DNA from: a virus
Taxonomy: Duplodnaviria > Heunggongvirae > Uroviricota > Caudoviricetes
Virus record (IMG/VR): IMGVR_UViG_2558860473_000005
Location: 1 to 41,949 of that record
DNA length: 41,949 nucleotides
Direction: 5' to 3' (one strand)
Shown: in pieces, positions 1-41,949 of the stretch
How the letters are laid out: each line of letters starts with the position of its first letter
Position numbering within the stretch: position 1 is the first letter of the stretch
Position numbers and translations under genes: made by a program
The notes under the pieces: generated by a model
Database searches by the model: none
Told to the model about the DNA's origin: nothing
Seen by the model: only the letters and a program-made list of their open reading frames with translations

Positions 1-1248
1 ATGGCACTGAATATTCCATTCAGAAATGCGTACTATCGTTTTGCATCCAGTTACTCATTTCTCTTTTTTATTTCCTGGTCGCTGTGGTGGTCGTTATACG
101 CTATTTGGCTGAAAGGACATCTAGGGTTGACAGGGACGGAATTAGGTACACTTTATTCGGTCAACCAGTTTACCAGCATTCTATTTATGATGTTCTACGG
201 CATCGTTCAGGATAAACTCGGTCTGAAGAAACCGCTCATCTGGTGTATGAGTTTCATCCTGGTCTTGACCGGACCGTTTATGATTTACGTTTATGAACCG
301 TTACTGCAAAGCAATTTTTCTGTAGGTCTAATTCTGGGGGCGCTATTTTTTGGCTTGGGGTATCTGGCGGGATGCGGTTTGCTTGATAGCTTCACCGAAA
401 AAATGGCGCGAAATTTTCATTTCGAATATGGAACAGCGCGCGCCTGGGGATCTTTTGGCTATGCTATTGGCGCGTTCTTTGCCGGCATATTTTTTAGTAT
501 CAGTCCCCATATCAACTTCTGGTTGGTCTCGCTATTTGGCGCTGTATTTATGATGATCAACATGCGTTTTAAAGATAAGGATCACCAGTGCGTAGCGGCA
601 GATGCGGGAGGGGTAAAAAAAGAGGATTTTATCGCAGTTTTCAAGGATCGAAACTTCTGGGTTTTCGTCATATTTATTGTGGGGACGTGGTCTTTCTATA
701 ACATTTTTGATCAACAACTTTTTCCTGTCTTTTATTCAGGTTTATTCGAATCACACGATGTAGGAACGCGCCTGTATGGTTATCTCAACTCATTCCAGGT
801 GGTACTCGAAGCGCTGTGCATGGCGATTATTCCTTTCTTTGTGAATCGGGTAGGGCCAAAAAATGCATTACTTATCGGAGTTGTGATTATGGCGTTGCGT
901 ATCCTTTCCTGCGCGCTGTTCGTTAACCCCTGGATTATTTCATTAGTGAAGTTGTTACATGCCATTGAGGTTCCACTTTGTGTCATATCCGTCTTCAAAT
1001 ACAGCGTGGCAAACTTTGATAAGCGCCTGTCGTCGACGATCTTTCTGATTGGTTTTCAAATTGCCAGTTCGCTTGGGATTGTGCTGCTTTCAACGCCGAC
1101 TGGGATACTCTTTGACCACGCAGGCTACCAGACAGTTTTCTTCGCAATTTCGGGTATTGTCTGCCTGATGTTGCTATTTGGCATTTTCTTCTTGAGTAAA
1201 AAACGCGAGCAAATAGTTATGGAAACGCCTGTACCTTCAGCAATATAG
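1..1248 (+). CDS. cscB: LacY-family sucrose:H+ symporter (CscB-like), 415 aa
   Basis: Full-length ORF from window position 1; strongly hydrophobic multi-TM protein whose sequence I recall as E. coli CscB sucrose permease; host gene outside the prophage. Confidence 0.85.
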   Translation: MALNIPFRNAYYRFASSYSFLFFISWSLWWSLYAIWLKGHLGLTGTELGTLYSVNQFTSILFMMFYGIVQDKLGLKKPLIWCMSFILVLTGPFMIYVYEPLLQSNFSVGLILGALFFGLGYLAGCGLLDSFTEKMARNFHFEYGTARAWGSFGYAIGAFFAGIFFSISPHINFWLVSLFGAVFMMINMRFKDKDHQCVAADAGGVKKEDFIAVFKDRNFWVFVIFIVGTWSFYNIFDQQLFPVFYSGLFESHDVGTRLYGYLNSFQVVLEALCMAIIPFFVNRVGPKNALLIGVVIMALRILSCALFVNPWIISLVKLLHAIEVPLCVISVFKYSVANFDKRLSSTIFLIGFQIASSLGIVLLSTPTGILFDHAGYQTVFFAISGIVCLMLLFGIFFLSKKREQIVMETPVPSAI

Positions 1249-1260
1249 ACGTAAACTTTT

Positions 1261-1298
1261 TCCGGTTGTTGTCGATAGCTCTATATCCCTCAACCGGA
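1261..1298 (+). terminator. Inverted repeat downstream of cscB (TCCGGTTG ... CAACCGGA), possible transcription stop
   Basis: 8-bp perfect inverted repeat with a 22-nt loop, 13 bp after the cscB stop; no clean U-run, so weak. Confidence 0.3.
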
Positions 1299-1689
1299 AA
1301 ATAATAATAGTAAAATGCTTAGCCCTGCTAATAATCGCCTAATCCAAACGCCTCATTCATGTTCTGGTACAGTCGCTCAAATGTACTTCAGATGCGCGGT
1401 TCGCTGATTTCCAGGACATTGTCGTCATTCAGTGACCTGTCCCGTGTATCACGGTCCTGCGAATTCATCAAGGAATGCATTGCGGAGTGAAGTATCGAGT
1501 CACGCCATATTTCGCTATCAGGATTCTGTGTGATGGTTACATCGCCCGGCCCAGGGCTGTTTAGTCATCAGCGCTTTCTGACAGTGCTGAGATTTCAACC
1601 TGTTGCAGTAAAAATGAGTAGATATAAGGCAAGTGTGCTGCCAAACCCATCTTTTACGGGGTGAAGGTAGATTTCGTTTGAAGGGTATC

Positions 1690-1704
1690 TGGTGTCCCCT
1701 GCAG
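1690..1704 (-). other. 15-nt copy of the tRNA-Arg (argW) 3' end incl. CCA (TGGTGTCCCCTGCAG on + strand); putative prophage attachment core (distal junction)
   Basis: Matches the reverse complement of the argW 3' terminus as I recall it; sits between the host cscB side and the excisionase gene. Confidence 0.55.
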
Positions 1705-1777
1705 ACATCTACTTGAGGCAGCAGGGGATTGATTGGAATGGTGTTTTTTAGATGTGAAAAATATTTTACCCGCTATT

Positions 1778-1978
1778 TTACCCATTGGCGCGGCTTAAGA
1801 GCTTATTTTTGAATTCACAATGGTCACGATATAACCATCTTGCTCGCCCGTGGATAACTTTGGCTTTTGGCAGGTCTCCGGACTTAATCCGGTCATAGAT
1901 GAAGGTCTTACCGAAGCCAGTATCGGCCATGATGAATTTCAAATCAACCAGGGAATCAGGCTGTAGTTCGTGTTGCAT
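1778..1978 (-). CDS. torI: AlpA-family excisionase / recombination directionality factor (TorI-like), 66 aa
   Basis: Sequence MQHELQPDSLVDLKFIMADTGFGKTFIYDRIKSGDLP... recalled as TorI/AlpA family; lies just inside the att fragment, at the opposite prophage end from int. Confidence 0.8.
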   Translation of the reverse strand: MQHELQPDSLVDLKFIMADTGFGKTFIYDRIKSGDLPKAKVIHGRARWLYRDHCEFKNKLLSRANG

Positions 1979-1997
1979 GAGTGCTATCTCCGAATAG

Positions 1998-2013
1998 GGA
2001 ATCGAACCTGCAA
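1998..2013 (-). other. Second tRNA-Arg fragment (T-arm region, GGAATCGAACCTGCAA), not a complete tRNA
   Basis: 16-nt match to the reverse complement of the argW T-arm; flanking sequence is not tRNA-like. Confidence 0.5.
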
Positions 2014-2020
2014 ATCAGGC

Positions 2021-2043
2021 AATAAAAAACCGCATTGATGCGG
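2021..2043 (-). terminator. Rho-independent terminator at the end of the leftward early operon
   Basis: Hairpin CCGCAT-loop-ATGCGG followed by a U-run on the minus strand, just downstream of the 2103 stop. Confidence 0.5.
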
Positions 2044-2102
2044 CGATGGTAGGTCTGGATATCTTGAGAAATGAACTGGCCTCATCGAGTGTGAGGCTGT
2101 GG

Positions 2103-2447
2103 TTAGTCCTTGCGTAACTCGCTAATTCTTCTGTAAGTCTCTGGTGCTTTGTTTCCGTGTATCTTCATTTCAGACTTCAACAGAGCAACGAGGGAATCCC
2201 ATTCGTTGAGGATGCCTTTGAATGCCGGAACGCGCTTTGCAACCTTGTCGAATGAATCCCTGATTTCTGGAATCTGCTCAACAAGTGCAACGCATCGTCG
2301 GAAATCGGCTGCGTCATGTGGAGCGCCGAAGTGATGACCATAGATATTCTTTTTCAGTCCACATGCGATTGAGGCAAGAGTTGCGCTACTGATGCCGACA
2401 TCGCCAGTCGATTGCCATTTCAAAACCTTCATAGCCAAATCTGACAT
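2103..2447 (-). CDS. Hypothetical phage protein (114 aa from the internal start; track ORF extends to 2474)
   Basis: ORF track 2103..2474; GGAGA RBS 6 nt upstream of the ATG at 2447, whereas the 2474 start lies inside an upstream terminator hairpin. Confidence 0.55.
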   Translation of the reverse strand: MSDLAMKVLKWQSTGDVGISSATLASIACGLKKNIYGHHFGAPHDAADFRRCVALVEQIPEIRDSFDKVAKRVPAFKGILNEWDSLVALLKSEMKIHGNKAPETYRRISELRKD

Positions 2448-2460
2448 TTCTTGTCTCCAA

Positions 2461-2482
2461 TAAAAAACCGCCATCAGGCGGC
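2461..2482 (-). terminator. Rho-independent terminator between the zinc-ribbon gene and the 114-aa gene
   Basis: Hairpin CCGCC-atca-GGCGG followed by a U-run on the minus strand. Confidence 0.5.
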
Positions 2483-2547
2483 TTGGTGTTCTTTCAGTTC
2501 TTCAATTCGAATATTGGTTACATTGTTTTCATATATGAATAAATAAA

Positions 2548-2727
2548 TTAGCTTTTTTCGTTGCCTTCGCGATCTTTATTAATTTTGACAAACTCGTTTT
2601 TACCACGCTCTCCAAATGCGTCTTTAGAGTCGTTGTATCCGCAATCGCAGCACACATAATCACCAGACCATCCACGCATTGTTTTTTCTTTTGCAATATT
2701 TCCAGAACCGCATTTTGGACAAGACAT
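2548..2727 (-). CDS. Small zinc-ribbon protein (CPKCG ... CCDCG), 59 aa
   Basis: Two CxxC pairs; GGAGG RBS 7 nt upstream of the ATG at 2727 (track ORF 2548..2760 starts at a TTG). Confidence 0.55.
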   Translation of the reverse strand: MSCPKCGSGNIAKEKTMRGWSGDYVCCDCGYNDSKDAFGERGKNEFVKINKDREGNEKS

Positions 2728-2823
2728 ATCACTACCTCCAAAGCATGAGTGAGATGACAACGTAACATTGATTGGAGATTAACAATAGATTGCTGATGTA
2801 AAAGATATGTATAAGCTTCGCTT

Positions 2824-3603
2824 TCAAAGTGGAGGCTCTGGTAGCGGCATCCAGTGAGTCATTTCATGGGCAAGGATATCTGAGTTAAGTTCCGTCCAAC
2901 TATTCCAATACCCAGATTCATCCCACCATTTAACCTCGACATGCTCGCCGTCTGTCACTAACACATCAGCATACCCTTTCGGCATTCGCTCACTACAGCT
3001 TATCCAACCATCCGGAGTTACCGGAGAGTTGCCAGACAGTGCGTTCTGCAATCGTTCCAGCTTAACGTATTCCTGAACCCTGTTTCCGTCGCACGCCTGA
3101 AGCCATTGCACAGCCTTTTGCGCATCAGTGTGAAAGGTACAAGTGCGACCGTCATCAAATTGCATTTCGTAGAGGTCAGCAACCTGTTTAAACTGCGTTT
3201 GTGGCAACTTGTAAGCCTGGCTTGCATGTACGGCACCATAGAGCATGGCTGCACGGCAGGCGTTCCATCCGACAGCTTTTCCGTGTTCAAACGCGCTGTC
3301 AAAGTCATCATCCATTTCCATCGCATCAGGCACAGATACCGTCTCTGGAGGGGCGGCGTAAAGCGGAGTTACGGTAATTTCGTACTCGTTTATATCCTCG
3401 TCGCTGATATTTGCGAAATAGCGAAGGATGCCTTTCTCTCCACGACTACGAGCGTCAGAGTCCTGAATGATATACGCCACAGGCTCTGCTTCCAGCGATG
3501 CCAGCGCAATCCGTGCCAGTTCCATTTGTTCACCACGGGTAAGCCCGTTTTCAAGCGGATTTTTAATGAACAATTCAATACGTTCTTTGGTAATAGTGGC
3601 CAT
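2824..3603 (-). CDS. Phage protein with C-terminal DUF551-like domain, 259 aa
   Basis: C-terminal segment DGWISCSERMPKGYADVLVTDGEHV...WMPLPEPP resembles DUF551 of lambdoid early-region proteins. Confidence 0.6.
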   Translation of the reverse strand: MATITKERIELFIKNPLENGLTRGEQMELARIALASLEAEPVAYIIQDSDARSRGEKGILRYFANISDEDINEYEITVTPLYAAPPETVSVPDAMEMDDDFDSAFEHGKAVGWNACRAAMLYGAVHASQAYKLPQTQFKQVADLYEMQFDDGRTCTFHTDAQKAVQWLQACDGNRVQEYVKLERLQNALSGNSPVTPDGWISCSERMPKGYADVLVTDGEHVEVKWWDESGYWNSWTELNSDILAHEMTHWMPLPEPPL

Positions 3604-3605
3604 GG

Positions 3606-3797
3606 CTATTTCACCTTAATCTCAACATTTCGCAGTTTTAGCTCCACTGGCAGGTCTGACTTTCCGGTTAAAGCTAATGCGAGATTTTCTGGAGTAATGA
3701 GAGCTGTTATTGTTTTCCCCATCGCCAGACGAATAATCATTCGTATTTCGCGATCGTCACATGCTCCTGGTCGAACAATTGATATCTGTCCGTTCAT
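3606..3797 (-). CDS. Small hypothetical phage protein, 63 aa
   Basis: AGGAG RBS immediately upstream of the ATG at 3797; start sits 1 nt after the stop of the upstream Ea22-like gene (translational coupling). Confidence 0.5.
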   Translation of the reverse strand: MNGQISIVRPGACDDREIRMIIRLAMGKTITALITPENLALALTGKSDLPVELKLRNVEIKVK

Positions 3798-3798
3798 C

Positions 3799-5049
3799 TC
3801 ACTCTCCTTTGATGCGAATGCCAGCGGCGCGGATTGCATCGATGACTTCAGAAACTTTGTATGCCATTACCGTTTGGTAATCATCGTGAAAATCTGTTCG
3901 ATGAAGCATGCTGCTACGTTCCGGGAGCAGTATTTCCCGCGCTTCCAGTTCAGCAATCCGCTTCTCTGCTGCTTCCAGCTCATCCAGCAGCGCGTTATCT
4001 TCATCCTCTCTCAACACCACTGTGTCGAAGCTTTCGGCCTGCTTTTTGATTTTTGCAATCAGCGCCTGTTTGTTGATGTTGCTCATTTGGCGGACTCCTG
4101 TGCTCCAAGTTTTGCCCCATACTTCAAGGCTGTTATGCGAAATCAGCGCTTCGCGAACGCATGGCCTGTAGTAGTGATGGAAAGCGAAGGTCAGGCCGAG
4201 TTTTGTCGGGCGATCGTGTTTGCCAAGCAATCCCAGGCGAATACAGATAGTCGTTGCCGTGTAGCCAGAGTGATAGCCAGCAGCACGCTTCATAACTGTT
4301 TCTGCCAGAATGGTGCGGAAATCAGTGCGCCCGAAATTGGTACCTTCGAAAGCGGCGTTAACCACTTCGTCTGTAAGATGTGAATCATCAACTATGCTCA
4401 TACCGCTTCCCCCCTGACGAAGCTGGGCGGCGAACTCGTCGCATACGTGCGTTAAAGAGCAAATCTGGATAGCAGGATGCTCGCGCAACAATTCAACACC
4501 CTGCGCCCGCACTTCAGCCAGGAAGGCGTCGGTGGCTGGGTGCTCTGTCTGGCTATGCATTGCCCATTCAGATAAGTACTCGAAGCAACGGCGAAACTCC
4601 TGCCAATCACTGCACATGTTTAGGTTTCCGCCTTTACACTCGAACTGGTAATTCTCTAAACGGTCTGCAAACGCTCTGCCATTCTCTATGGCACCAAGTG
4701 GAGTTTCAGACTTCAGCCAAGCATTCTCCGCAGCCAGCGCCGCGAGATTAGTCTCAAGCTCTGCAATTCGACACATAGCATCAATATTTGTGTCCTCCAG
4801 GCGCTTAATTTCACCAAGCAGCTCCAGTGCAACCTTTGGGTTGAACGCGGCAACATGACGAGCGTTGTTCTCTGCATTTTTCTGTCCATCAAAGCCGGTC
4901 CATTTGATAACGTCTTCACATCGTTCATCACCGGGCGTGTGCACCGCATAAGTACCAGTATCCGTCGAAATAAATGCGACCCATTCGTCTGGTGTTGCCT
5001 TTTCTGCCGCCTCACGCAGTACCTGATAGTCAATTGTCATTCTCGCCAT
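3799..5049 (-). CDS. Ea22-like (ead/Ea22 family) early-region protein, 416 aa
   Basis: N-terminal IDYQVLREAAEKATPDEW motif typical of Ea22-like proteins; coiled-coil-rich. Confidence 0.7.
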   Translation of the reverse strand: MARMTIDYQVLREAAEKATPDEWVAFISTDTGTYAVHTPGDERCEDVIKWTGFDGQKNAENNARHVAAFNPKVALELLGEIKRLEDTNIDAMCRIAELETNLAALAAENAWLKSETPLGAIENGRAFADRLENYQFECKGGNLNMCSDWQEFRRCFEYLSEWAMHSQTEHPATDAFLAEVRAQGVELLREHPAIQICSLTHVCDEFAAQLRQGGSGMSIVDDSHLTDEVVNAAFEGTNFGRTDFRTILAETVMKRAAGYHSGYTATTICIRLGLLGKHDRPTKLGLTFAFHHYYRPCVREALISHNSLEVWGKTWSTGVRQMSNINKQALIAKIKKQAESFDTVVLREDEDNALLDELEAAEKRIAELEAREILLPERSSMLHRTDFHDDYQTVMAYKVSEVIDAIRAAGIRIKGE

Positions 5050-5702
5050 CCTTCACAGTTGTAATCACTACAGCCTTCAAAATCATATGGGCTGTACTGC
5101 CAGGTTATTTTTCCGCAATGCGGACAATTCCAACGCACCTTCCCGCTTCGCGACTTCTTTCTTCTGTTCTGCTCTTTCAACCAGTCAGGCATGACCAAAC
5201 CTGCGCCCTGAACCATTGTTCTGCGGTTAAATTTATTGATATTGAACGTCCGGCGCTTTGCTGCATCAGCAATGGAAAATGGCAACCAAACTATTCCTGG
5301 TTCGTTTTTGTTGGCGACGCTAAAGATGGTAGCTTTACTGAAGTCATCTGTTGGCAATCCACCGTGTTGAAGCCAGTAAACATCGTTGCCGTTCCAGCTA
5401 CCTTTTTTGTAGGCCACATACGCAGTGCAATCTGACTTAATCAGGCTTTCTGTAGGGATGTACTGGCAATCAACGTGCCACACTGCCATTGCATCCACGC
5501 TATCAGCGCAAACAGGCTGATCGATATCTCGCCCACAATTCCAGGCTTTTTGGGCTTTTTCCAGCGTGTAAACATGAGCGCGATCGATATCAGAACTGTA
5601 ACCATTGCCGTTATGGCAATGGAATGAAGCGTTATTGCCCACAGTTTCACGCGAGCACATCATGTAAAAACGGTTAGTCACTGGCTGCCTCCTTTGCGCC
5701 AC
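5037..5702 (-). CDS. Hypothetical protein with C-terminal CxxC...CxxC zinc-finger motif, 221 aa
   Basis: ORF in the leftward early operon; C-terminal NCPHCGK...CSDYNCEGW. Confidence 0.55.
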
Positions 5703-6465: not shown

Positions 6466-6954
6466 TTATTTGATAAGAAGTGAAGGTTTCCCAACTTTGA
6501 GTTGAGCGCCGGGGATATTTATTCCTGCTTTTAGTTGGTGTTTGATTGCCAGTTTGTCGGCTTTAATTGTCGTTTCAAACTCAACGTATTCAGGAGGAAG
6601 GGCGCTTGAGTCGATTATTTCTACAATTTCTGATGGTTTGCGGATTGTTACCTGGTGAATACCTGCTCGAATCTTTTTCTTGCCAACCATTTCAAGCGAT
6701 GAGGCTATATATGCCATAATGCTATCAATCTTATTTTGAATTACTGCTGCTCGTTCATTCAGTGACTTTGCCTCGTCCTTGAGGCGTTCAGCATAACCAG
6801 ATTCATTTTTAATAATGGCAAGAAGTTGCTCTATTTTATCGGTAAATTCTCCTTCCATGCCTTCTATTGTGTCAGCAATCATCTCTGGTTCTAAATCTGA
6901 ATCCATCAATTTTGCGTATTCATTGGCTATTTCATATAGTTTGCTCACTGGCAA
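6466..6954 (-). CDS. Siphovirus Gp157-family protein (companion of RecT-type recombinases), 162 aa
   Basis: Recalled family similarity; overlaps the RecT gene stop as in phage recombination modules. Confidence 0.65.
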   Translation of the reverse strand: MPVSKLYEIANEYAKLMDSDLEPEMIADTIEGMEGEFTDKIEQLLAIIKNESGYAERLKDEAKSLNERAAVIQNKIDSIMAYIASSLEMVGKKKIRAGIHQVTIRKPSEIVEIIDSSALPPEYVEFETTIKADKLAIKHQLKAGINIPGAQLKVGKPSLLIK

Positions 6955-7834
6955 CCTCCAGTTTCGCTTTGCATTCTATGTAAATGGCTTGTACGTTCTG
7001 CTGCAATTTCATTCCAGATGTCAGGCGATATGCTTCTGCAAAATATCGCTTCAAATCATCCATGTTTTCTGCCTGAGCCATTTCATCACAAAGAAGTTGT
7101 GCTTTTTCCATAATTTCCTGCTGGCGTTTCCGTTCATCTTCGCGGATATCTTCCTCTGATTTGTGCGGCATAACTGGTTCCTGATGCATACCTTCATCCT
7201 CGTTAAGCAGGTGAATGGCATTATCCAGTCGCTGGGCTTTAGGCCAGTATTTGCTGGCGCGTTTAACTATTGTTTTACGCGCCATCTCTTCCCAGAATGT
7301 TTTCCACGGTCCATTCTTTGCCTTGCTCGTTGCTTCCACAGCTTTAATTTCTGCCAGACTCATTTCTTCAGTCAGGTAGTCACCATCTGCTGTTTTAACC
7401 GTGCAATAACCTCCAACAATAGAGCCTCGCTCACCAAATGCGTTGTATTTGTGGGTTGGTGCTGAATCAAGGCCATTTGATTCATAGGTGTCGTTTGAGT
7501 ACACCAGTTTGCATTGCCCCCACTTAATTGATCCTGTCGATTGCGCAAGATGAAGTAATCCCATGTAACTGATATCAAGGCACACCATGCCGTCGCGAGG
7601 AACCAGATAAGCCAGTTTGCTGGCCGGGTTTAAGGTGATGCCGATCGCCGCAACATTGATGATGGCGTTCTGTGCGCTGGTTGGATTTGCCAGTGCCGTT
7701 TTAGCCAGGTAATCATTTTTCTGGAAATACTGAATTGCAAACTGGCTTTCCTTAGCCCATGTCACCGTCTGTTCAGTCAATGCTCCGCAGAATAACTGCT
7801 CCTGCTGTTTAACGAATTCAACGATATTGCTCAT
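6932..7834 (-). CDS. recT: RecT-family single-strand annealing recombinase, 300 aa
   Basis: Conserved RecT-like core (LAYLVPRDG...); position matches lambdoid recombination modules. Confidence 0.8.
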   Translation of the reverse strand: MSNIVEFVKQQEQLFCGALTEQTVTWAKESQFAIQYFQKNDYLAKTALANPTSAQNAIINVAAIGITLNPASKLAYLVPRDGMVCLDISYMGLLHLAQSTGSIKWGQCKLVYSNDTYESNGLDSAPTHKYNAFGERGSIVGGYCTVKTADGDYLTEEMSLAEIKAVEATSKAKNGPWKTFWEEMARKTIVKRASKYWPKAQRLDNAIHLLNEDEGMHQEPVMPHKSEEDIREDERKRQQEIMEKAQLLCDEMAQAENMDDLKRYFAEAYRLTSGMKLQQNVQAIYIECKAKLEVASEQTI

Positions 7835-9992: not shown

Positions 9993-10652
9993 TTAACTAA
10001 ATGTCTCTTCAGGCCACTGGCTGGCGATAACTTTCCCTACTACGGAACAGCTATCATTGCATGGAATCATTGGATATTGCGGGTTTAGTGGCTGTAGGAA
10101 CACCTGACCGCTATCCCTGATCAGTTTCTTGAAGGTAAACTCGTCACCACCAAGTCTGGCTATGCAGAAATCACCTGGCTCAACAGCCTGATCAGGGTCA
10201 ACGAGAATTAACATCCCGTCAGGAAAGCTTGGCTTGGATCCTGTTGGCGCGGTCATGGAATTACCTTCAACTTCAAGCCAAAACGCACAATCACTGGCTT
10301 TTTTGGTTGTGCTGACCCATCTCTCCGCATCACCTTTGGTAAAGGTTCTAAGCTCAGGCGAGAACATCCCGGCCTGAACATGAGAAAAAACAGGGTACTC
10401 ATATTGTTTTTTAACGGGGGCAGATGAGTATTCGCCAACAGGTGAAAATGTACCGTCGTGGTTGAATGAGACGTTATCAATACCAAGGTATTTAAACACC
10501 ACACCAATCTCGTCAAGAGATGGATGACGAGATCCGCGCAACCAGTGACCAATTCCACCCTGCGTCATACCAAGCTCTTCAGCTAACTTCTCTTGAGTTA
10601 TGCCGAGCTCTTTCATTCTGGATCTAGCCAGTTCATACCATTTCATTTTCAT
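9993..10652 (-). CDS. cI: CI-type prophage repressor (HTH N-terminal domain plus S24/LexA-like C-terminal domain), about 219 aa
   Basis: C-terminal half ([37 protein letters not shown]...) is near-identical to lambda CI by recall; N-terminal DNA-binding domain is different; start taken at MKMKWYEL (10652) or two codons later (10646). Confidence 0.85.
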
Positions 10653-10763
10653 ACCCCTATTATTACGCTCTGTACTAAAACCATCCATGCACAAGATGTA
10701 TTTTTTGTTTGCATTCTAAAAGTACATATCGTATTATTGTTTCATGGTTACTATGGAGGGCAT
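10653..10763 (+). promoter_or_regulatory. OR/PR/PRM region: two GTAC dyads (ATTACgctctGTACT 10662-10676; AGTACatatcGTATT 10721-10735) and putative PR (-35 TTGCAT 10709-10714, -10 TATTAT 10732-10737)
   Basis: Divergent cI-cro intergenic region; the dyads share half-sites with the OL dyad; PR has a 17-bp spacer and is overlapped by the second dyad. Confidence 0.5.
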
Positions 10764-27991: not shown

Positions 27992-29410
27992 ATGCCGATT
28001 CAGCAACTTCCGCTTATGAAAGGTGTCGGCAAAGACTTTAGAAACGCCGACTATATCGACTATCTGCCAGTGAATATGTTGGCTACACCCAAAGAAATAC
28101 TCAACAGCAGCGGATATCTTCGCTCATTCCCGGGCATTGCCAAACGTTCTGATGTGAACGGTGTATCGCGCGGTGTCGAGTACAACATGGCGCAGAGTGC
28201 TGTTTATCGCGTGTGTGGCGGCAAGCTGTACAAAGGCGAAAGCGAAGTCGGTGACGTCGCCGGAAGTGGTCGCGTATCAATGGCGCATGGTCGAACATCT
28301 CAGGCGGTAGGCGTTAATGGTCAACTGGTCGAGTATCGCTATGATGGCACGGTTAAAACAGTCTCAAACTGGCCTACAGACAGCGGATTCACTCAGTATG
28401 AGTTAGGTTCGGTTCGTGACATTACGCGCTTACGTGGGCGTTATGCGTGGTCAAAAGACGGAACTGATTCATGGTTCATCACTGACCTTGAAGACGAATC
28501 ACATCCTGACCGCTACAGCGCACAATATCGTGCCGAGTCTCAGCCTGACGGTATCATCGGCATCGGAACATGGCGAGACTTCATTGTCTGCTTTGGTTCA
28601 TCGACGATTGAATATTTTTCCATGACTGGTGCAACCACCGTTGGTGCCGCTTTGTATGTCGCACAGCCATCACTGATGGTGCAGAAAGGTATTGCCGGGA
28701 CTTACTGCAAAACGCCGTTTGCTGATTCCTATGCGTTCATCAGCAATCCGGCAACAGGTGCGCCGTCTGTGTACATCATCGGTTCCGGTCAGGTATCACC
28801 AATCGCCAGCGCGAGCATTGAGAAAATACTACGCTCCTACACTGCTGATGAACTGGCTGATGGCGTGATGGAGTCTCTGCGATTTGATGCGCATGAGCTG
28901 CTGATTATCCACCTTCCTCGCCATGTTCTCGTGTACGACGCATCTTCAAGCGCCAATGGTCCGCAATGGTGCGTACTGAAAACAGGACTGTATGACGATG
29001 TGTACCGCGCTATCGACTTCATTTACGAAGGCAATCAGATAACGTGCGGCGATAAGCTGGAATCCGTGACCGGGAAACTGCAATTCGATATCAGCAGCCA
29101 GTATGACAAGCAGCAGGAACACCTGCTGTTTACTCCACTCTTCAAAGCAGATAACGCCAGATGCTTTGATCTGGAGGTGGAATCATCGACGGGTGTTGCT
29201 CAGTACGCTGACCGCCTTTTTCTCTCTGCAACCACTGACGGCATAAATTACGGTCGTGAGCAGATGATTGAGCAGAATGAACCGTTCGTTTACGACAAAC
29301 GCGTTTTGTGGAAGAAAGTAGGGCGCATCAGGAAAAACATTGGTTTCAAATTGCGCGTTATCACGAAGTCACCTGTCACTCTGTCTGGCGCTCAGATAAG
29401 GATTGAGTAA
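27992..29410 (+). CDS. Head completion / packaged-DNA stabilisation protein (P22 gp10-like), 472 aa
   Basis: Same length as P22 gp10 and conserved synteny. Confidence 0.75.
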
Positions 29411-39453: not shown

Positions 39454-39476
39454 GGGGGGGATTATTCCCCCTGTTT
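39454..39476 (+). terminator. Terminator between the convergent tailspike and acyltransferase genes
   Basis: Hairpin GGGGGG-attatt-CCCCC followed by TGTTTTACTTT; overlaps the acyltransferase stop. Confidence 0.55.
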
Positions 39477-40595
39477 TACTTTCCTCATATCCACCAGTTT
39501 ACCAGGGATGCTCATAAATATCTTATTTCTAATCTTGTTAGTAAGTATCACTTCAATATATTTATGCGAAAGAAATGCAATAAAAATTGATAAAATTAGT
39601 AAAATAGTGAACCCGTATACATTGTGCATCACACCTGGATTATTAGCCTCAACCTGCCATGAAATGTAACTACCTACCTGGTTATGAAGCAGATACCATG
39701 AGAAGGAAATATCACCAAGCATTACAAAAAATGATGGTGTAATTTTTGTTATAACTTCATCATTTATTACGAACGCCACTAAGAGGAAGTATGCAATGAT
39801 GCCTGTCTTTAAATTATAACCTTCAATAGAACCATTGAAGACTGCAGTCATAAAAATTAATGCCGATATAGCAGTGAATGAGTATTTTAATCTATTGCTC
39901 CATGATTTTGCTGAACGCACTGTGTGCCCAGCAAGGATGCCTAAAGCAAATTCAATTACTATCGGATTTGTTAAAAAGCTAAGTTCTGGAGTACCAGTTT
40001 TATAACCTGAAGTGGATAATGTTACATTTCCAGTCAACATATATCCTACAAGGATAGTTGTCATTATCCATACGACTATGCCAGAGGTTCTTTTATTGAA
40101 TAATAAACAAAGTGCGAATACAAGATAGAAGTATAATTCATAGTTAAGCGTCCATCTAATAACAAATATACCACCAGCATCAACATACAAAGGAGGGTAC
40201 GCATCCGTAAAAGGAGAGAATGTTAAAGCACTCAGTAAGTTTTCCACCTTAGCTTGGTCAACGAAGATTCCAACTTCCCATGTAAAGTAGAAAGCTGTAA
40301 AGAGAGCAATAAAATATGTAGGAAAAATCCTTGTGAGTCTTTCTACGGAAAAGAATATAGCAGACTTTATACCAGATGGCTTACGGCTAGTGATATGCAT
40401 CATAATAAAACCACTTATTACGAAGAACAAATCAACACCAGCAGAACCCCAAGATAAATATTTATTAGGGATAGTTAAATCTCCATACAATGGTGATAAC
40501 CAAAATCTGTAGTGAAAAAGAACTACAGACAATGCAGCTAATCCTCTAAGTATCTGTACTGAGCTAAGTTTATTGTTCATTATTAAACCGATCAC
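39462..40595 (-). CDS. Acyltransferase family 3 (OafA/Oac-like) integral membrane O-acetyltransferase, 377 aa
   Basis: Multi-TM protein with acyltransferase-3-like N-terminal motif (ILRGLAALSVVLFHY); very AT-rich by eye; between tailspike and int, as oac is in Sf6. Confidence 0.75.
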   Translation of the reverse strand: MIGLIMNNKLSSVQILRGLAALSVVLFHYRFWLSPLYGDLTIPNKYLSWGSAGVDLFFVISGFIMMHITSRKPSGIKSAIFFSVERLTRIFPTYFIALFTAFYFTWEVGIFVDQAKVENLLSALTFSPFTDAYPPLYVDAGGIFVIRWTLNYELYFYLVFALCLLFNKRTSGIVVWIMTTILVGYMLTGNVTLSTSGYKTGTPELSFLTNPIVIEFALGILAGHTVRSAKSWSNRLKYSFTAISALIFMTAVFNGSIEGYNLKTGIIAYFLLVAFVINDEVITKITPSFFVMLGDISFSWYLLHNQVGSYISWQVEANNPGVMHNVYGFTILLILSIFIAFLSHKYIEVILTNKIRNKIFMSIPGKLVDMRKVKQGE

Positions 40596-40791: not shown

Positions 40792-41949
40792 TCACTCCAC
40801 CTTTTCATCAAGCCAGTCCGCCCACCATTGCATCATTTCTCTGCGCTTATCGAGATACTGAGCATGGTTGTAAATCCCGCGCACAGAACCGCCGTTGGCA
40901 TGTGCCAGCTGCACTTCAATAGCGTCAGCAGGCCATTCGTGCTCGTTCATAATCGTGCTGAATTCATGCCTGAATCCGTGACCGCTTTCCAGACCTTCAT
41001 AGCCGATTTGTTTGATCACAAGCAATACCGCGTTCTCGCAGATTGGCTTCTTCTTATCGTTGCGCCCGGCAAAAACAAACTCTGAGACTGGTTTGGTGAT
41101 TGAGCTTAGCGTAGTGAGAAGTTCAACTACCTGGTCTGACATAGGAACCACATGAATTTTGCGTCCCTTCATCACGCTGGCGTCGATGGTGATAATCCTG
41201 TTTTCAAAATCGACGTTCTTCCATAGCATAGAACGAAGCTCTTTCGTTCTTAGGGCTGTGTAGCGTAAAACTTTGGTCGCAATGAGCGATACGATACTTC
41301 CTGAAAATGTTGCCAGTGCTTTGTTGAATGCCGGGATCTGGTCTGCAGGAAGAAACGGGAAGTTCTTCTTGCGGTATCCTTTCATGGCGTCAGCAAGGTC
41401 AGGTGCCGGGTTATATTTAGCCCTGCCGGTGACAATAGCGTAACGGAAAACCTCGCCGCATCTTCTGCGGGCTTTATTGGCTCGTTCCATTGCACCGCGA
41501 TCTTCAAATCTGCGGATTACTTCCAGCAGTTGCATTGGCTCAATATCCTGAATTTCAAGGCCGCCGATGATAGGTAAAATGTCGTCATCAAACATTTTTG
41601 CAAGTTCAGTCGCATACCCTACTGACCATACTTGCTTCTTGTGCTCGTACCATTCCTTGTAAATCGCACTAAAGGAATTGTTGTTAGACGAAGCCTTTTT
41701 CGCCTTTACCGGATCGATGCCAACCGAGATGTCTTTCCTCGCGGTCCATGCCTTATCCCTTGCCTCCTGCAAAGTCATAAGCGGATATTTTCCTACGGTC
41801 AGTATTTTTTCCTTACCGTCAATCTTGTAGCGAAGCTGCCATACCTTTTTCCCGGATACAGGGACATAAAGGTACAGGCCATTACCATCGAGAAGGCGGT
41901 ATGGTTTTTCTTTCGGCTTTGCTGCTTCAATCTGCTTAACGGTGAGCAT
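40792..41949 (-). CDS. intS: Tyrosine integrase (P4-type phage integrase family; IntS/Sf6 Int-like), 385 aa
   Basis: N-terminal SAM-like domain and C-terminal catalytic domain with conserved R...HGFRH...Y residues; start codon at the last 3 nt of the window. Confidence 0.85.
   Translation of the reverse strand: MLTVKQIEAAKPKEKPYRLLDGNGLYLYVPVSGKKVWQLRYKIDGKEKILTVGKYPLMTLQEARDKAWTARKDISVGIDPVKAKKASSNNNSFSAIYKEWYEHKKQVWSVGYATELAKMFDDDILPIIGGLEIQDIEPMQLLEVIRRFEDRGAMERANKARRRCGEVFRYAIVTGRAKYNPAPDLADAMKGYRKKNFPFLPADQIPAFNKALATFSGSIVSLIATKVLRYTALRTKELRSMLWKNVDFENRIITIDASVMKGRKIHVVPMSDQVVELLTTLSSITKPVSEFVFAGRNDKKKPICENAVLLVIKQIGYEGLESGHGFRHEFSTIMNEHEWPADAIEVQLAHANGGSVRGIYNHAQYLDKRREMMQWWADWLDEKVE

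Follow-up and report, generated by a model that had tools for sequence, protein, structure and literature searches.

The best described relatives of the locus studied here are found in the early-left operon of lambdoid phages. Phages P22 and HK620 share a 59 amino acid (aa) gene, called eaG in the first and hkaD in the second, which is located directly upstream of the t'I terminator. The P22 annotation is itself doubtful ('EaG(?)'). Phage HK022 has a 114 aa gene, gene 32, which lies with its own terminator between t'I and the excisionase gene and is labelled "N15 early protein homolog" in the HK022 record. Lambda has an intact orf55, directly followed by xis. [quoted passage not shown] Terminators inside the operon have been suggested, in P22-like phages, to stop transcripts which lack gp24/gp23 modification (PMC8022706). 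The Rac prophage contains Lar/RalR, a small zinc ribbon with four cysteines, whose gene is close to xis in an early-left operon of the lambdoid type. Another possible comparison is with morons, insertions which separate two genes that are neighbours in a related phage, and which have a promoter and a terminator of their own.

We have compared these systems with a stretch of 41,949 nt (virus record IMGVR_UViG_2558860473_000005), the whole of which we call the window. It opens with cscB, a chromosomal sucrose permease gene (1-1248, plus strand), labelled "oligosaccharide MFS transporter" in the matching RefSeq loci. A P22/HK620-like prophage extends from about 1690 through the end of the window. 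It is integrated beside cscB by means of a recombination module of the argW type, IntS/TorI, whose excisionase is torI/hkaC (PMC3509656). Other prophage markers are the head-binding domain of a P22-type tailspike, an S24 repressor of the CI type and RecT. All genes from 1778 to about 9700 are on the minus strand, including those for RecT, Gp157, Ead/Ea22-like and DUF551 proteins. Every ORF between RecT and torI is on this strand, which is the pL-strand position of the ea/exo-xis accessory genes. The features used below are the following:

1689-1704: attR core, from the 16 bp HK620 attP core mapped onto the window
1778-1978, minus strand: torI/hkaC excisionase gene (recombination directionality factor), from the RefSeq annotation of identical loci
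1985-2023, minus strand: region of a pI-type (cII-activated) integration promoter, 5' of torI, from homology to the HK620 annotation
2023-2044, minus strand: second intrinsic terminator, the orf114 cassette's own, hairpin plus T-run (scan site 2044-2029)
2079-2097, minus strand: hairpin without a U-tract, just past the orf114 stop codon in the conserved 3' flank of the cassette, from the terminator scan and folding
2103-2447, minus strand: orf114, homologue of HK022 gene 32, from its ORF, ribosome binding site and PHROG 1229
2458-2521, minus strand: lambda t'I terminator and 3' remnant of lambda orf55 (...NIRIEELKEHQAA), 98.4% identical to lambda 29102-29165
2548-2727, minus strand: eaG (P22 EaG, HK620 HkaD, 'Eag protein'), from its ORF, ribosome binding site and PHROG 2945
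2728-2823, minus strand: 96 nt non-coding leader of eaG, co-inherited with it according to genome counts
6932-7834, minus strand: RecT
9993-10694: CI-type repressor
40792-41949, minus strand: IntS-type integrase, a prophage gene

An earlier note on this DNA had described eaG and orf114 as a pair of moron-type accessory genes close to the prophage junction, bracketed by terminators and perhaps expressed independently of antitermination. We consider it likely that they are instead two separate modules of the ea/exo-xis kind, placed at the distal end of a pL operon, gated by antitermination and perhaps coding for early modulator proteins. Both genes are indeed near the prophage end, but the gene closest to the junction is torI. 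The two terminators which the note had placed between the genes and after the second one are found at 2465-2484 and 2029-2044. The genes are not bracketed by them, as there is none upstream of the first gene.

The internal starts with strong ribosome binding sites have been confirmed for both genes. In the case of eaG, the ATG is at 2727 and the stop codon at 2548-2550, with a Shine-Dalgarno sequence GGAGG (2739-2735) 7 nt 5' of the ATG. This start is internal because the longest ORF (70 aa) begins at a TTG, at 2760. For orf114, the ATG is at 2447 and the stop codon at 2103-2105, and GGAG (2458-2455) again precedes the start codon by 7 nt. The longest ORF at this place has 123 aa and its ATG (2474) falls inside the terminator hairpin; the alignments of the family start at MSDLAMK, which supports the 114 aa start.

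The 59 aa gene is eaG of P22, which is also hkaD of HK620. The window has 97-99% DNA identity to these phages over leader, gene and terminator, at the same site of the operon, and nothing material differs. The protein matches PHROG 2945 over residues 1-58 (E 3.6e-31) and is named in the P22 record L06296 (eaG), in HK620 (hkaD) and in identical E. coli loci of RefSeq ('Eag protein'). The family is narrow, with homologues which are 85-98% identical. More divergent database entries are chimeras which switch frame with an overlapping ORF, and these probably arise through homopolymer assembly errors. The ORF in question has 79 aa and overlaps eaG in another frame of the same strand (2529-2768, minus). 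The homology search which the earlier note had proposed places the two genes in PHROG 2945 and PHROG 1229. The records of P22, HK620, HK022 and lambda already list these genes and t'I. We have searched the literature on eaG, hkaD, the PHROG numbers and the ea genes, and a functional study has not been found.

The two CxxC pairs reported for the 59 aa protein are present, as CPKC (C3/C6) and CCDC (C26/C29). In the AF2 model, residues 1-32 form a beta-hairpin ribbon (pLDDT about 80); the protein also has a basic tail. A zinc ribbon of about 60 aa with four cysteines (C3, C6, C26, C29) is what characterizes Lar-type proteins. In the Rac prophage, RalR also has a comparable relative position, as it is close to xisR. 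EaG might be a functional protein of the Lar/RalR type, which protects early phage DNA by relieving type I restriction or as a small DNase. From the sequence comparisons, we regard this as possible but rather doubtful. The match to Pfam PF14354 (Lar_restr_allev) has an E value of 6.4e-5, and several near-identical relatives carry PF14354 in precomputed tables; its 23.6 bits are nevertheless under the cut-off of 28.6. TIGR03655 (Lar) gives E 0.022 and 15 bits, far under its cut-off of 39.6, so neither curated threshold places EaG in the family. BLASTP against RalR/Lar of K-12 finds 30% identity across 54 aa (E 1e-3), an alignment which reaches past the cysteines. On the other hand, the likeness is mostly due to these four cysteines, other zinc-ribbon families (HVO_2753, PRK14890) give similar scores, and EaG does not keep the W-N-x-R signature of the C-terminal end of Lar. 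An Rfam search did not detect any RalA-like antisense RNA at the EaG locus. Searches of Pfam, NCBIfam, PHROG and PDB for characterised anti-defence relatives gave this weak Lar-like signal for EaG and none for the orf114 protein. PADLOC, whose library consists of defence rather than anti-defence proteins, had no match to either of them.

The 96 nt leader of eaG is present in 271 of the 5,426 complete E. coli genomes, as compared with 327 for the gene. This co-inheritance, the unusual size of the gap for a tightly packed operon and the terminator directly downstream would fit a true moron, formed by leader, eaG and t'I, expressed from its own promoter and possibly active in the lysogen. A relaxed scan finds a promoter-like site in the leader, TTTACA-15-TGtTAATCT (2802->2776, 8/12), which has an extended -10 TG. 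We consider this explanation improbable. The -10 matches only 3/6 positions, the spacer has 15 nt and the site fails the standard scan. Folding of the leader gives no excess structure (z = -0.57), and it has no match in an Rfam search of 1200-4000 at E <= 1, in which nothing was found. The notes in the P22 record define the Ea proteins as early proteins. As no copy of the leader falls below 97% identity, its conservation tells nothing either way.

The terminator between the two genes is lambda t'I. Its hairpin (2484-2465) and U-tract (2467-2462) are intact, with a folding energy of -13.4 kcal/mol (z = -2.9). The label t'I in the P22 record L06296 also rests on identity with lambda. According to the translation of lambda orf55, the matching 64 bp of lambda are the 3' end of this gene, whose stop codon is in the hairpin loop. 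The window therefore keeps a remnant of orf55, in contrast with the intact gene of lambda, and a cassette has been inserted after the terminator, where lambda continues with xis. The 64 bp t'I core is found in 2,491 of the 5,426 genomes. It is far commoner than either flanking gene, and in lambdoid prophages it thus behaves as a frequent mosaic joint.

A second terminator is located downstream of orf114, with a folding energy of -8.3 kcal/mol (z = -2.8). Its U-tract side repeats 13 bp of t'I, AATAAAAAACCGC (2021-2033 and 2459-2471), and the orf114 cassette is flanked by this direct repeat. Just past the orf114 stop codon there is another hairpin (2097-2079, -8.6 kcal/mol, z-score -2.6). The flank which contains it is common to HK022 (96%) and to the 3' flank of P22 eaC (83.5%). 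In all, the terminator scan of 1200-4200 gives 8 sites, as against 2.6 +/- 2.0 in shuffled sequences.

DNA searches show the region to be a patchwork of familiar lambdoid sequences, and comparison with related phages shows how this arrangement is built. By pairwise BLAST, HK620 matches the window at 1700-2044 and at 2458-2856, and its single terminator (1699-1723) aligns to both terminators of the window. Compared with HK620, where orf114 is absent and t'I abuts pI, the orf114 cassette (about 2045-2457) is therefore inserted. The pI region, mapped from the HK620 features 1664-1702 and 1689-1701 (97% identity, offset +321), is the downstream boundary of the accessory segment. HK022 has the whole cassette and both terminators (window 2016-2521, 96%); over HK022 and the other phages which carry the gene with its terminator, identity is 96-100%. 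HK022 differs in that the cassette follows a lambda orf55-type gene, not eaG, and adjoins an unrelated int/xis module. An orf55-type gene also takes the place of eaG in lambda.

P22 has eaC in the slot between t'I and pI, which is empty in HK620 and in lambda. This gene shares with orf114 both its 5' flank (Shine-Dalgarno sequence and ATGTCAG) and its 3' flank (window 2048-2132, 83.5%). The alignments of the slot flanks cover 2016-2132 and 2441-2471 of the window, and 1370-1453 and 2064-2085 of P22 L002. The fact that slot cassettes share their flanks, including the Shine-Dalgarno sequence and the first codons, suggests that they are exchanged by homologous recombination. The first module consists of the 96 nt leader, eaG, the orf55 remnant and lambda t'I, and the second one is a cassette of ~415-440 bp, formed by orf114 and its own terminator, in the t'I-pI slot.

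Both genes are mosaic and variably present among related phages, as expected for dispensable accessory genes. The accessory status given to them in the earlier note is well founded, since HK620 has no orf114, and HK022 and lambda have no eaG. A P22 prophage in which eaC-eaE was replaced by a KmR cassette is reported to yield no viable phage (PMC11016777). We have not counted this as evidence of essentiality, because a polar effect on xis is expected.

The description of the genes as a pair does not agree with their distribution. Among the 5,426 complete E. coli genomes, orf114 is found in 915 (about 17%) and eaG in 327, and they are adjacent, as they are here, in only 116. These counts, together with the strong terminator and the mosaic joint between them, point to independent modules instead of a functional pair. 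A two-component unit at the prophage end, such as a toxin-antitoxin or an effector-adaptor system, would account for two small, adjacent genes on the same strand, and for the 116 genomes which keep the exact arrangement. We find it hardly tenable, as most copies of either gene lack the other: HK620 and P22 have eaG without orf114, while HK022 and 434 have orf114 and an orf55-type gene like that of lambda. The toxin-antitoxin reading has been rejected on this distribution.

The position of both genes, directly upstream of pI and torI, might also suggest that they regulate excision or integration. Position is the only argument for this, and we consider it very unlikely. KplE1 and HK620 have a conserved IntS/TorI module, which is functional in both, and neither carries orf114. 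This gene is also found next to the unrelated int/xis modules of HK022 and of lambda-type phages, and even in virulent phages without integrase. The reading of the genes as excision regulators has been rejected on these grounds.

The two modules are thus best discussed as accessory genes of the pL operon, and the next question is how they are expressed. The Shine-Dalgarno sequence of orf114 begins 3 nt past the U-tract of t'I. This leaves no room for a promoter, so that the orf114 mRNA must traverse t'I. A sigma-70-like scan of the minus strand from 1200 to 4200 (at least 9/12) finds a single site (1331-1304), which is downstream of both genes, and there are no promoter-like sites at threshold between 2000 and 2900. 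The scan is limited to the sigma-70 consensus, and relaxing it yields only weak 8/12 sites. The suggestion that the terminators imply independent expression is therefore not supported, there being no promoter of at least 9/12 and no space for one before orf114.

The moron-type label is only partly justified. Like a moron, the orf114 cassette separates genes which adjoin each other in a related phage, and a terminator (2029-2044) comes with it; eaG is also followed by a terminator (2465-2484). Unlike a moron, orf114 has no promoter of its own, and eaG has the single weak 8/12 candidate, with a -10 of 3/6, in its leader. The terminators probably belong to a classical pL operon gated by antitermination and would not be marks of autonomous morons.

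On the basis of this anatomy, eaG and orf114 would be transcribed from pL upon infection or induction. Unmodified polymerase would halt at t'I, and only the antiterminated transcript (N/gp24-type) would get to orf114, the second terminator, torI and beyond. As the antiterminated transcript would read through both terminators, these would gate expression and not insulate the genes. Neither of them should be expressed in a repressed lysogen. With low confidence, we suggest that both proteins are small host- or DNA-directed modulators, which would act within minutes of the onset of lytic growth. EaG would tentatively be closest to the zinc-ribbon proteins of the Lar/RalR type, whose action is on DNA and in the alleviation of restriction. 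The orf114 protein is a member of a very large unnamed family of helical domains, found in early and recombination regions of phages which infect Proteobacteria and Actinobacteria. The exo-xis gene products described in PMC8614690 include no homologue of either protein. All that the window shares with that region of lambda and Stx phages is the Ead/Ea22-like protein (3799-5049) and the orf55 remnant.

The residual interest of the locus is in the orf114 family. The protein matches PHROG 1229 over its full length (residues 1-114, E 7.1e-52). Its identity is 100% to the proteins of mEp043 and mEp213 and 97-98% to those of HK022 and 434, and homologues are also found in g341c and in many Stx phages. 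It is annotated as "hypothetical" almost everywhere, with "lipoprotein" in one Stx2 phage record. In a profile search of 1.84 billion representative sequences, 2,818 proteins pass E <= 1e-3 and 624 pass E <= 1e-10. Aligning 45 diverse members shows invariant residues W11, S20, P43, D45, D48, R51, C52 and W83, and the orf114 protein keeps the family motif W...GxSS...PxDxxDxxRC...W.

The fold search which the earlier note had suggested has given a confident model and no match to a solved fold. AF2 predicts an all-helical protein with seven helices (pLDDT 93, pTM 0.86). We have found no relatives in Pfam, NCBIfam, PADLOC or PDB, where sequence searches with either the single sequence or the profile give only noise. 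A Pfam scan of the 45 diverse members and of 10 longer fusion proteins does not show any consistent domain. The BFVD search gives only uncharacterised phage homologues, one of them from Clavibacter phage CN1A, and the relatives found with a broad profile are all labelled 'hypothetical protein'. When a narrow alignment is used against genome contigs, just 4 enterobacterial loci are obtained.

Homologues are found in phages, both temperate and virulent, of Vibrio, Salmonella, Escherichia, Yersinia, Aeromonas, Mannheimia and Arthrobacter. They are typically placed among small early genes which adjoin recombination or replication genes. In distant relatives these include RusA, RecT-like, exonuclease, YqaJ, SSB and helicase genes, a closeness which may reflect merely the early region. 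That the family is so broad, and that some of its polar residues never vary, suggests that its target or substrate is conserved, and the spread over phages of Proteobacteria and Actinobacteria suggests that this conservation is universal. The family can be considered phage dark matter: It is widespread, early, confidently folded, rich in invariant polar residues and annotated nowhere. Its members are present in HK022, 434 and mEp043, which are genetically tractable model phages, and a function found for orf114 could extend to thousands of proteins.

A 558 aa ORF in a 1.9 kb Logan contig (SRR30503383) has PolyA_pol/CCA-adding and HD domains, followed by a C-terminal domain of the orf114 family. 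We have discounted this fusion (P0201), which is found in a single contig and may be due to a lost stop codon. The other longer proteins with this domain have no recognisable partner domain.

Several other features of the prophage should be mentioned. The 3' end of the tRNA-Arg gene argW seems to be split. One piece, TGGTGTCCCCTGCAG, is the att core (1690-1704), and the next segment, GGAATCGAACCTGCAA(A)T, lies ~290 bp away (1997-2015), within the region of pI and the cII box. The entire torI gene is found between both pieces, an arrangement shared with HK620, which suggests that torI was inserted into an older, longer segment of tRNA homology in attP. TorI/HkaC also has a match to the PADLOC model mad1 (E 7.6e-14), which most likely reflects shared AlpA-type HTH homology, and not a defence function.

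A 377 aa protein of the Acyl_transf_3 family (39462-40595, minus) has its gene between those for the tailspike and the integrase, where P22-like phages usually carry O-antigen-modifying genes for lysogenic conversion. The gene is a better moron candidate than eaG or orf114. The Ead/Ea22-like protein (416 aa, minus strand) is a patchwork, separate segments of which match many PHROGs. Downstream of its gene, a 77 aa ORF (3606-3839, minus) matches PHROG 1222 from residue 15 only, so that its true start is probably an internal ATG, which gives a 63 aa protein. A 221 aa protein (5037-5702, minus) matches PHROG 2457 (E 2e-118) and has a C-terminal CPHCG...C..C motif. Judging from this motif, it may be a further uncharacterised zinc-binding early protein of the same operon.
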